Shown here piece after piece: positions 19,000 through 21,900 of a stretch of 64,000 bases of DNA. The stretch is from the NCBI RefSeq assembly GCF_044324785.1, contig NZ_CP172127.1. One strand, 5' to 3'. A program made the position numbers. Source of the DNA: Escherichia coli. GTDB taxonomy: Bacteria; Pseudomonadota; Gammaproteobacteria; Enterobacterales; Enterobacteriaceae. Numbering within the stretch: position 1 is the first letter of the stretch; each line of letters starts with the position of its first letter.

Positions 19000-21900
19000 T
19001 AGTTTGTAAACCGTCCGGCACTCAATCGCCAAAAAGAAAAAAGCCAGCAGATAATCACTGCTGGCGTGGCGATTAACACCAATACTCAGTCACACATGAT
19101 GTCCGCAAATCAGTAGTCAGAATGACTCCCCTCCCACTGCATCAGTTCTTCAAGCATAGTTAATCGTTGTGGGACGCTTAACCAACGCAACCAGCACAAC
19201 TTCGCTGTCGCGGTAAAATAGTGCTGATAAAACTGACGCATGGGGCACCTCCTTGCTTCATCGTTAGGAATTATTGACTTAATATAGGGAAAATAAAATT
19301 GCTGACTTTTGCGCAGGAGTTCCCCTTTTATGCCATCTGCTCGTCTGCAACAACAGTTCATCCGCCTGTGGCAATGCTGCGAGGGTAAATCGCAGGACAC
19401 GACGCTCAACGAACTGGCAGCGTTATTGAGCTGCTCGCGTCGTCATATGCGCACCCTGCTCAACACCATGCAGGATCGCGGCTGGCTGACGTGGGAAGCG
19501 GAAGTCGGGCGCGGCAAACGCTCGCGTCTGACATTCCTCTATACCGGGCTGGCGCTTCAGCAACAGCGAGCAGAGGACCTGCTGGAGCAGGATCGTATCG
19601 ATCAACTAGTGCAGTTGGTTGGCGACAAAGCGACTGTGCGGCAAATGCTGGTTTCTCATCTGGGCCGCAGCTTCCGCCAGGGGCGACACATCCTGCGCGT
19701 GCTCTACTATCGTCCATTGCGTAATCTGCTACCTGGCAGTGCATTGCGCCGTTCCGAAACCCATATCGCCCGGCAAATCTTCAGTTCGCTAACGCGCATA
19801 AATGAGGAAAATGGGGAACTGGAGGCAGACATCGCCCACCACTGGCAGCAAATTTCACCGCTTCACTGGCGTTTCTTTTTGCGTCCAGGAGTCCATTTTC
19901 ATCATGGTCGTGAACTTGACATGGACGACGTGATCGCCTCTTTAAAACGAATCAATACGCTGCCGCTCTATTCGCATATTGCTGACATTGTGTCGCCGAC
20001 GCCCTGGACGCTGGATATCCATCTCACGCAACCGGACCGCTGGTTACCGTTACTACTGGGGCAAGTTCCGGCGATGATCCTGCCGCGCGAATGGGAAACC
20101 CTCAGCAACTTTGCCAGCCATCCCATCGGAACGGGTCCGTATGCGGTGATCCGCAACAGCACCAATCAACTGAAAATTCAGGCATTCGATGACTTCTTCG
20201 GTTACCGGGCATTAATCGACGAAGTTAACGTCTGGGTTCTGCCGGAAATTGCCGACGAGCCAGCCGGAGGGCTGATGCTAAAAGGGCCACAGGGCGAGGA
20301 AAAAGAGATTGAAAGCCGCCTGGAGGAAGGTTGCTACTATTTACTGTTCGACAGCCGCACCCATCGCGGGGCGAATCAGCAAGTCAGGGACTGGGTAAGC
20401 TATGTGCTTTCTCCAACTAATCTGGTCTATTTCGCTGAGGAACAGTACCAGCAACTGTGGTTCCCGGCTTATGGACTGCTCCCACGTTGGCACCATGCTC
20501 GTCCGACACATTGCGAAAAACCCGCCGGGCTGGAAAGCCTCACCCTGACCTTTTATCAGGATCATATTGAGCATCGAGTGATTGCCGGGATCATGCAGCA
20601 GATTCTGGCAAGTCACCAGGTCACGCTGGAAATCAAAGAGATCAGCTACGATCAGTGGCATGAAGGAGAGATCGAGAGCGATATCTGGCTTAACAGCGCC
20701 AACTTTACGCTGCCGCTGGATTTTTCGCTGTTCGCGCACCTGTGCGAGGTGCCGCTGCTCCAACACTGTATTCCGATCGACTGGCAAGCCGACGCCGCCC
20801 GCTGGCGCAATGGCGAAATGAACCTGGCGAACTGGTGCCAGCAACTGGTCGCCAGCAAAGCAATGGTGCCACTTATCCACCACTGGCTGATCATTCAGGG
20901 GCAACGCAGTATGCGCGGTCTGCGTATGAACACCCTAGGCTGGTTCGATTTTAAATCAGCGTGGTTTGCGCCGCCGGATCCAGAGTAGCTTGCGCCTTTT
21001 GGCGGTGATGAGCGCGTTTTTATATTCAGACGGAATGAATAAAATACATTACTTTTATATTTTCTCTGTTTTATGCATCGTCTGATTAGCGTCGCAAATA
21101 AGATTAAAGAAGGGGCATTCCAGCCCCTCTTTCATATTCTGAGTTAATCAATAACGGCGCAGCCTAGCCGTGTTCTGGCCGGAAAGGTCAGCTTTTTCAG
21201 GTTAACCTCGCGCAGGTCAGTCATACCAACGGCTATTGTTCGTTTCAGCATTGCTCAGGTCAACCTCGAGACGGTCAATACCACAAATGACAACCCCGTT
21301 AAAGTAAGCATGACTCAGATCAATGCACCCGGTACTGGTGCTCTCTTTCAGCTGCAAATCCAGAGTAAGTATCGCCTCATCTCCAATAAAAAAACTGACT
21401 CTTAACGTATCTCCTGACGAGAGTGAGGCCTTCGCGGCCATATTTTCCGGATCTATTGCATGTTCTTTGAGTTTATTAAAATTTATCAGCCAGTGGGTAA
21501 ACTTATCACGCGCATCCCCATCTACAGCCCCGGTAAAGTATTTTGAGTAGTCATCACAATTCTGGAAATAAAATGCATCCTTCAGAATTTGCCTTGCCGC
21601 AGTCTGGGAATGTTTATCTGACCGGAAGAGATTGCGTAACGTCTCCCATAGCTCTTCAAAGATATTCATATTCTCGGTCTTTTTAACCAGGTTAACCATC
21701 CTGATAATCTGAGAATGAGTAAGGCCTGGATCTTTAGTGGTATTACTTGCAGGGATACTAATCTGTTCTGGGTTTCTTACTTTCATGCTGATAGCTCCAC
21801 TCTGAGTTAAAAACTCAGAATAAGCGTCCTGAATAAGAATACTGTCAAAAATCGCTCATTCACGCAATAAGCCGTTGCATTACCGATTTTGACTGTGCTA

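Follow-up and report, generated by a model that had tools for sequence, protein, structure and literature searches.

A full-length sgrS gene, encoding the dual-function small RNA SgrS (227 nt), lies on the minus strand of the Escherichia coli DNA analysed here, a stretch of 64,000 nucleotides referred to as the window (Table 1). It was identified by a match to the Rfam covariance model RF00534 which scores 227.6 bits (gathering score, 37; E 6e-64) and is untruncated, covering model positions 1–232 of 232. A sequence-only reading of the same DNA had placed the RNA at 19036–19262; these boundaries agree base for base with the Rfam match, and the strand, which that reading had left unstated, proved to be the minus strand. 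The SgrS/SgrT locus is real, far beyond chance: the whole RNA folds at −81.8 kcal/mol (z = −3.7 versus shuffles), and 2149 E. coli genomes carry its 3′ 100 nt with at least 99% identity.

The genes around sgrS follow the order leuLABCD (+), sgrS (−), sgrR (+), espY2 (−), TPP riboswitch, thiB (+). This leuLABCD–sgrS–sgrR–thiB arrangement is the leu–sgr–thi neighbourhood of E. coli, and the window is E. coli-like in this respect. The best identity of positions 8000–32000 to any of 5426 complete E. coli genomes reaches only 98.0–98.5%, which is within E. coli-level divergence and makes another Escherichia species, considered as a possible source, less likely; the nearest matches include phylogroup-D-like strains, e.g., ST38 and PCN033, and the source lineage appears to be sparsely represented among complete E. 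coli genomes.

Table 1. Positions of the features at and around sgrS in the window; nt numbers refer to SgrS
Feature	Position	Strand	Remarks
Leucine operon leader/attenuator	14128–14277	+	upstream of leuA; Rfam RF00512, 143.1 bits
leuD-stop-to-SgrS-3′-end spacer	19003–19035		33 nt; leuD stop at 19002; site of the missing setA (1179 bp in K-12)
sgrS, dual-function small RNA	19036–19262	−	Rfam RF00534, full-length
Rho-independent terminator	19036–19065	−	stem GCCAGCAG/CUGCUGGC at 19065–19043; found by scan, folding and Rfam terminal helix
Small hairpin UGGUG-UUAAU-CGCCA	19067–19081	−	nt 182–196; 5 bp; part of the 3′ Hfq-binding module; MFE-predicted
Base-pairing (seed) region CAUCAUGUGUGACUGAGUAUUGGUGU	19076–19101	−	nt 162–187; includes G176 and G178
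sgrT, encoding the PtsG glucose-transporter inhibitor SgrT	19110–19241	−	ATG 19241–19239; 43 sense codons; TGA 19112–19110
sgrT Shine-Dalgarno GGAGG	19248–19252	−	nt 11–15; 6 nt before the AUG at nt 22
sgrS–sgrR divergent intergenic region	19263–19329		holds the sgrS promoter and conserved activator-site sequence
sgrS −10 element AATAAT	19270–19275	−	
sgrR, transcriptional activator of sgrS	19330–20988	+	intact; 98% amino acid identity to K-12 SgrR, residues 1–551
Insert between sgrR and the thiB riboswitch	20989–22026		
189-aa ORF within the insert	21217–21786	−	
TPP riboswitch	22027–22126	+	upstream of thiB; Rfam RF00059, 66.1 bits; corresponds to the K-12 sroA region

The 68 nt upstream of sgrS match K-12 at 66 positions, and the −10 element is embedded in a CAATAAT that is conserved in all genera examined; conservation of the sgrS promoter and of the SgrR site has been described before (PMC2760817). 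A generic sigma-70 scan returned no minus-strand promoter match for sgrS. This miss was not counted against the gene since the promoter is activator-dependent and matches K-12 so closely. Promoter-like matches on the plus strand inside sgrS (19026–19055 and 19073–19100) were dropped, as they are matches to the consensus only and the interval contains no plus-strand ORF of at least 30 aa. The activator gene sgrR is transcribed divergently from sgrS and carries the annotation sgrR in the closest genomes. The insert downstream of it is absent from K-12 and ST131 and present in strain 1190 and O157:H7, with the annotation T3SS effector EspY2. Beside this insert, the 3′ 500 nt of sgrR (20422–20921) are 7–18% diverged from K-12 and form a second indel-linked divergent block, besides the one at the 3′ end of sgrS described below.

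Pairing region, fold and terminator of SgrS

The sequence-only reading had made retention of both functions depend on a ptsG-pairing region free of divergence and an undisrupted sgrT frame. The alignment shows a ptsG-pairing core with 100% identity to K-12 and an sgrT frame free of interruptions. The seed is invariant among the window, K-12, O157, and ST131, and nt 166–187 are common to more than 40 enterobacterial species. It is predicted to be mostly single-stranded (mean unpaired probability 0.70) and to form a duplex with the K-12 ptsG leader at −29 to −8 with an energy of −28.9 kcal/mol, versus −27.8 kcal/mol for K-12 SgrS, through the same core. The K-12 leader served as the partner in this calculation, ptsG itself lying outside the window; the leader shows at least 99% identity in 5379 of 5424 E. 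coli genomes, the setA-less O157:H7 among them. An unrestricted RNAduplex run, in which the 3′ 50–77 nt of SgrS were set against the whole ptsG leader, yielded long, implausible interactions and was discarded in favour of the restricted calculation.

According to both the Rfam consensus and the MFE fold, nt 1–11 (GAUGAAGCAAG) are paired to the segment immediately 5′ of the seed, and the long central helix of the RNA consists of the sgrT coding region. The small hairpin differs in sequence from its K-12 counterpart (GGUG-UAAAAU-CACC) with the stem kept, and the sequence type found in the window also occurs in Citrobacter. The terminator (nt 198–220) has a stem of 8 pairs, of which 6 are G-C, a loop of 7 nt, and the tail TTTTTTCTTT; the U-tail reads U6-C, followed by T5 in the DNA, versus U8 in K-12. 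A G-C closing pair takes the place of the K-12 G-U pair, and the window terminator is slightly stronger.

The sgrT frame and its translation

Translation of the sgrT frame gives MRQFYQHYFTATAKLCWLRWLSVPQRLTMLEELMQWEGSHSDY, a protein that matches the annotated SgrT of E. coli strain 1190 at every residue and is found in exactly this form, under the name 'glucose uptake inhibitor SgrT' (NCBI, UniRef), on at least 1000 public contigs. A longer version of the frame in a mechanical ORF list, beginning with a TTG at 19409 (99 aa), was dismissed because it starts upstream of the transcript start at 19262. Another reading frame of SgrS opens at an AUG at nt 2–4, out of frame with sgrT and within the conserved 5′ helix.

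An alternative reading would grant the locus the riboregulator only, with sgrT open but either poorly translated or too altered at its C terminus, as in natively expressed K-12 sgrS or in O157:H7. The C-terminal part of this argument draws on the tail, which differs from that of the tested K-12 protein: SgrT of the CFT073 type, to which the window protein belongs, ends in EGSHSDY rather than in the K-12 sequence DDRNSES. Residues 1–31 are identical to K-12, and the differences other than residue 32 fall in the variable tail. In an alignment of SgrT ORFs from 22 loci/taxa of Escherichia, Salmonella, Citrobacter, Enterobacter, Klebsiella, Pluralibacter, and Siccibacter, however, every invariant column is retained by the window protein (F4, Y8-F9, A11-T12, W17-L18, L30, and L33-M-Q-W36), and its E32 agrees with the family consensus, in contrast to the G32 of K-12. 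The tail after LMQW varies from 1 to 22 residues in the same alignment and shows no conservation. Clusters of proteins at 90% identity mix both tail types and were unusable for assigning SgrT alleles to species; DNA loci were used instead. Homologous proteins of Salmonella, Klebsiella, and Erwinia with quite different tails are active in E. coli (PMC4021124), which speaks against an inactivating effect of the tail, as does the maintenance of an identical SgrT on so many contigs. The published mutational data (PMC3901232) concern mutations on the PtsG side only (KTPGRED motif), with none in the SgrT tail, and no report of a direct assay of the CFT073-type SgrT with the tail EGSHSDY was found in the literature.

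With respect to translation, the window and K-12 differ at the Shine-Dalgarno sequence. In K-12, this sequence is GGGGG and pairs with CCCC to form an inhibitory hairpin (GGGGGUGCCCC) that occludes the ribosome site and limits SgrT synthesis (PMC2760806; also PMC2760817); native K-12 SgrT is too low to rescue growth (PMC2760806), which lends weight to the riboregulator-only alternative, and the K-12 5′ stem-loop is present in just 3 of 15 E. coli strains (PMC2760817). In the window, the hairpin is broken because of an A at nt 13 (G→A), the local 5′ hairpin energy being −0.4 versus −6.0 kcal/mol in K-12. The ATG start—in place of the ATT of O157:H7—and the broken hairpin, which leaves a canonical GGAGG at 6-nt spacing, would both favour SgrT production. 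Exact 33-mer counts across 5426 complete E. coli genomes place GGAGG with ATG, the type of the window, in 3541 genomes and hence as the majority state, GGGGG with ATG (K-12 type) in 1426, and GGAGG with ATT (O157 type) in 312. The last group keeps SgrS without an sgrT start, so that SgrT is dispensable in some lineages. Furthermore, in the window as in K-12, the predicted fold draws the sgrT AUG largely into the long 5′ helix, with an unpaired probability of 0.06 and 0.10, respectively, and the actual yield of SgrT is uncertain for this reason. Weighed against the canonical ribosome-binding sequence and the retained invariant residues, these points leave the riboregulator-only alternative improbable, and an SgrS that also serves as the message for SgrT is the preferred reading.

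The setA-less junction and the sgrS 3′ end

In K-12, a distance of 27 nt separates sgrS from the start of setA, which owes its expression to read-through of the sgrS terminator (PMC9765468). A tblastn search with K-12 SetA finds nothing in the window, and no setA lies about 27 nt past the terminator as it does in the K-12-type sgrS–setA operon. The contiguous setA-less order leuD–sgrS–sgrR occurs in 2165 of 5426 complete E. coli genomes (~40%), including O157:H7 and ST131, which have the same junction as the window, as do E. albertii, E. whittamii, and Escherichia sp. E1V33. A scan for the SgrS seed in one genome per species yielded 47 loci. Every match in Citrobacter, Salmonella (arizonae, diarizonae), Raoultella, Enterobacter, Pluralibacter, Siccibacter, and Superficieibacter has setA directly after sgrS, and so do most Klebsiella matches; for K. 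pneumoniae (L051), K. indica (L038), and Yokenella (L052), the stored sequence ends too near sgrS for setA to be scored. The gene is absent from the type strain of E. albertii, E. whittamii, Escherichia sp. E1V33, and the E. coli representative. Since the other enterobacterial genera have setA directly after sgrS, its adjacency is probably ancestral for the family and its absence an old, lineage-wide loss within Escherichia. The 'loss of setA' of the sequence-only reading therefore stands as an absence and in this deep sense, but not as an event in the present genome. A published reconstruction takes the alternative view that setA was gained in the A/B1 lineage (PMC6896753). setA is not needed for the function of the riboregulator or of SgrT.

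The leu operon, which converges on sgrS, lacks an intrinsic terminator of its own in the window, and the separate leuD–setA hairpin of K-12 is missing. The sole hairpin after leuD (19003–19065) is the sgrS terminator, whose T-run serves the minus strand only. Read-through from leuD would be antisense to sgrS, and read-through from sgrS antisense to leuD.

Over its full length, the window SgrS is identical to K-12 at 197 of 227 positions (86.8%). Only three of the 30 differences fall within the first 131 nt, namely the Shine-Dalgarno change at nt 13 (G→A), a synonymous change at nt 105, and the change at nt 116 responsible for G32→E in SgrT. The other 27 lie 3′ of nt 131 and outside the seed; they affect the final seven codons of sgrT as well as the spacer, the small hairpin, and the terminator loop. 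Alignment to K-12 SgrS thus bears out the intact seed and frame but not a K-12-like sequence throughout. The divergence extends into leuD: a block covering the leuD 3′ end and the sgrS 3′ third (18943–19140) is 16–25% off K-12, compared to a background of ~3%.

The clustering of differences beside the setA deletion junction and the raised local divergence could point to a decaying remnant, an sgrS whose 3′ third was freed from selection once setA had been deleted. This explanation is effectively excluded, for the 26-nt seed is untouched inside the divergent stretch, both hairpins keep their pairing despite the changed sequence and the terminator is slightly stronger, the 3′ 100 nt are under purifying selection as judged from their identity of at least 99% in the 2149 genomes and their near-identity in E. 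albertii and E. whittamii, EHEC has a working SgrS with this 3′ half (PMC13293527), and the leuD end and several 3′ features are nearer to Citrobacter and Salmonella than those of K-12 are.

What the divergent stretch represents instead may be gathered from its distribution. The 3′ 100 nt of the window SgrS were found in 2157 E. coli genomes, and since this count nearly equals that of the setA-less order (2165), the 3′ allele and the absence of setA are essentially linked. At the leuD end, the window reads …AFMR*, as do other Escherichia, Citrobacter, and Salmonella, and K-12 with …AFMN* is the outlier. This pattern of divergence, together with the proposed acquisition of setA in an A/B1 sublineage (PMC6896753), suggests that the setA-bearing block of K-12-type strains may have been imported by recombination. 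The setA-less form, common to E. albertii and E. whittamii, might be native to Escherichia after a loss at the base of the genus. As a tentative and rather doubtful extension, the sgrS 3′ third and setA, along with the terminal ~60 nt of leuD, might constitute one dimorphic haplotype block in which the setA-less form is native, the K-12 form is introgressed, and the terminators may have co-evolved with their context. If so, the K-12 terminator would be leaky to feed setA, and that of the window, with its G-C closing pair, would be tighter in a setting where read-through yields only antisense leuD RNA.

A mosaic of the two forms occurs outside E. coli. The non-coli Escherichia sp. MOD1-EC7003 (locus L041, positions 1–700) combines a K-12-type sgrS 3′ end with a setA whose start is 99% identical to K-12, and its SgrR shares 95% identity with that of K-12. 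The hybrid nature of its sgrT (…EELMQWDDRNSES) indicates a recombination breakpoint between sgrT codons 32 and 37.

The probable dual-function module and its relation to known SgrS alleles

Taken together, the locus is very probably a chromosomal sgrR–sgrS(sgrT) module for glucose-phosphate stress, carrying a CFT073-type allele with the textbook dual function. All features named by the sequence-only reading (the small RNA, the sgrT frame of 43 codons, the pairing region in the 3′ part, and the terminator) were found intact, and its expectation that the riboregulator and small-protein arms are likely retained appears well founded on that basis. In the proposed mechanism, sugar-phosphate stress would lead SgrR to activate the divergent sgrS promoter. 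The resulting 227-nt RNA would end at its own intrinsic terminator and bind Hfq via the 3′ hairpins and U-tail, and the single-stranded seed (nt 167–188) would base-pair to the ribosome-binding region of ptsG mRNA, as well as to further known targets, e.g., manXYZ, to cause translation block and decay. The same RNA would be translated from the AUG at nt 22 behind GGAGG to give the 43-aa SgrT, which would inhibit the PtsG transporter directly.

For the window itself, this scheme builds on the sequence, a structure model, the intact ORF, the conserved seed, the intact activator gene, and the population frequency. From the established biology of the family and an experiment in EHEC, one would expect the RNA to be induced, to depend on Hfq, to repress its targets, and to yield an active SgrT by translation. 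In EHEC TUV93-0, deletion of sgrS leads to sensitivity to alpha-methylglucoside, and sgrS supplied in trans restores growth (PMC13293527). This result supports the riboregulator arm; TUV93-0 is setA-less, and its O157:H7 sgrS lies 2 nt off that of the window.

For annotation, the value of the analysis is that the genome appears to keep both arms of the glucose-phosphate stress response. Beyond that, K-12, the reference for nearly all work on SgrS, is itself a minority type, with a ribosome-binding-site-occluding hairpin shared by 1426 of 5426 genomes and a setA-linked 3′ allele. At the 5′ end, the window allele is of the majority type (3541 of 5426), and at the 3′ end, of the second most common one. 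Caution is therefore warranted when SgrT dosage or sgrS read-through is extrapolated from K-12 to strains of phylogroups B2, D, E, and F.

Compared to K-12, the window shares the RNA length of 227 nt, the identical seed, a 43-aa SgrT, the promoter region, and the sgrR partner; it differs in having no sgrS–setA read-through operon (described for K-12 in PMC9765468), setA being missing downstream. For SgrS of CFT073 and O157:H7, 88% identity to K-12 and 99% identity between the two have been reported, and the change in O157:H7 removes the sgrT start (Horler & Vanderpool 2009, PMC2760817). The O157:H7 RNA differs from that of the window at 2 nt over 227 nt and shares with it the 3′ allele and the setA-less, espY2-containing neighbourhood; owing to the ATG in place of the ATT, SgrT could be made from the window RNA. 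The other change relative to O157, also found relative to ST131, is synonymous (ACU for ACC, codon 28), and SgrT of ST131 is one residue off (Q6R). SgrS of E. coli strain 1190 is 100% identical to that of the window. With CFT073-type SgrS/SgrT, the window has in common the SgrT tail …EELMQWEGSHSDY, the setA-less leuD–sgrS junction, and the absence of a 5′ inhibitory hairpin, and no difference of substance separates the two. Judged by its sequence, the window sgrS is thus the CFT073-type allele already described, an ordinary gene in a common non-K-12 version.
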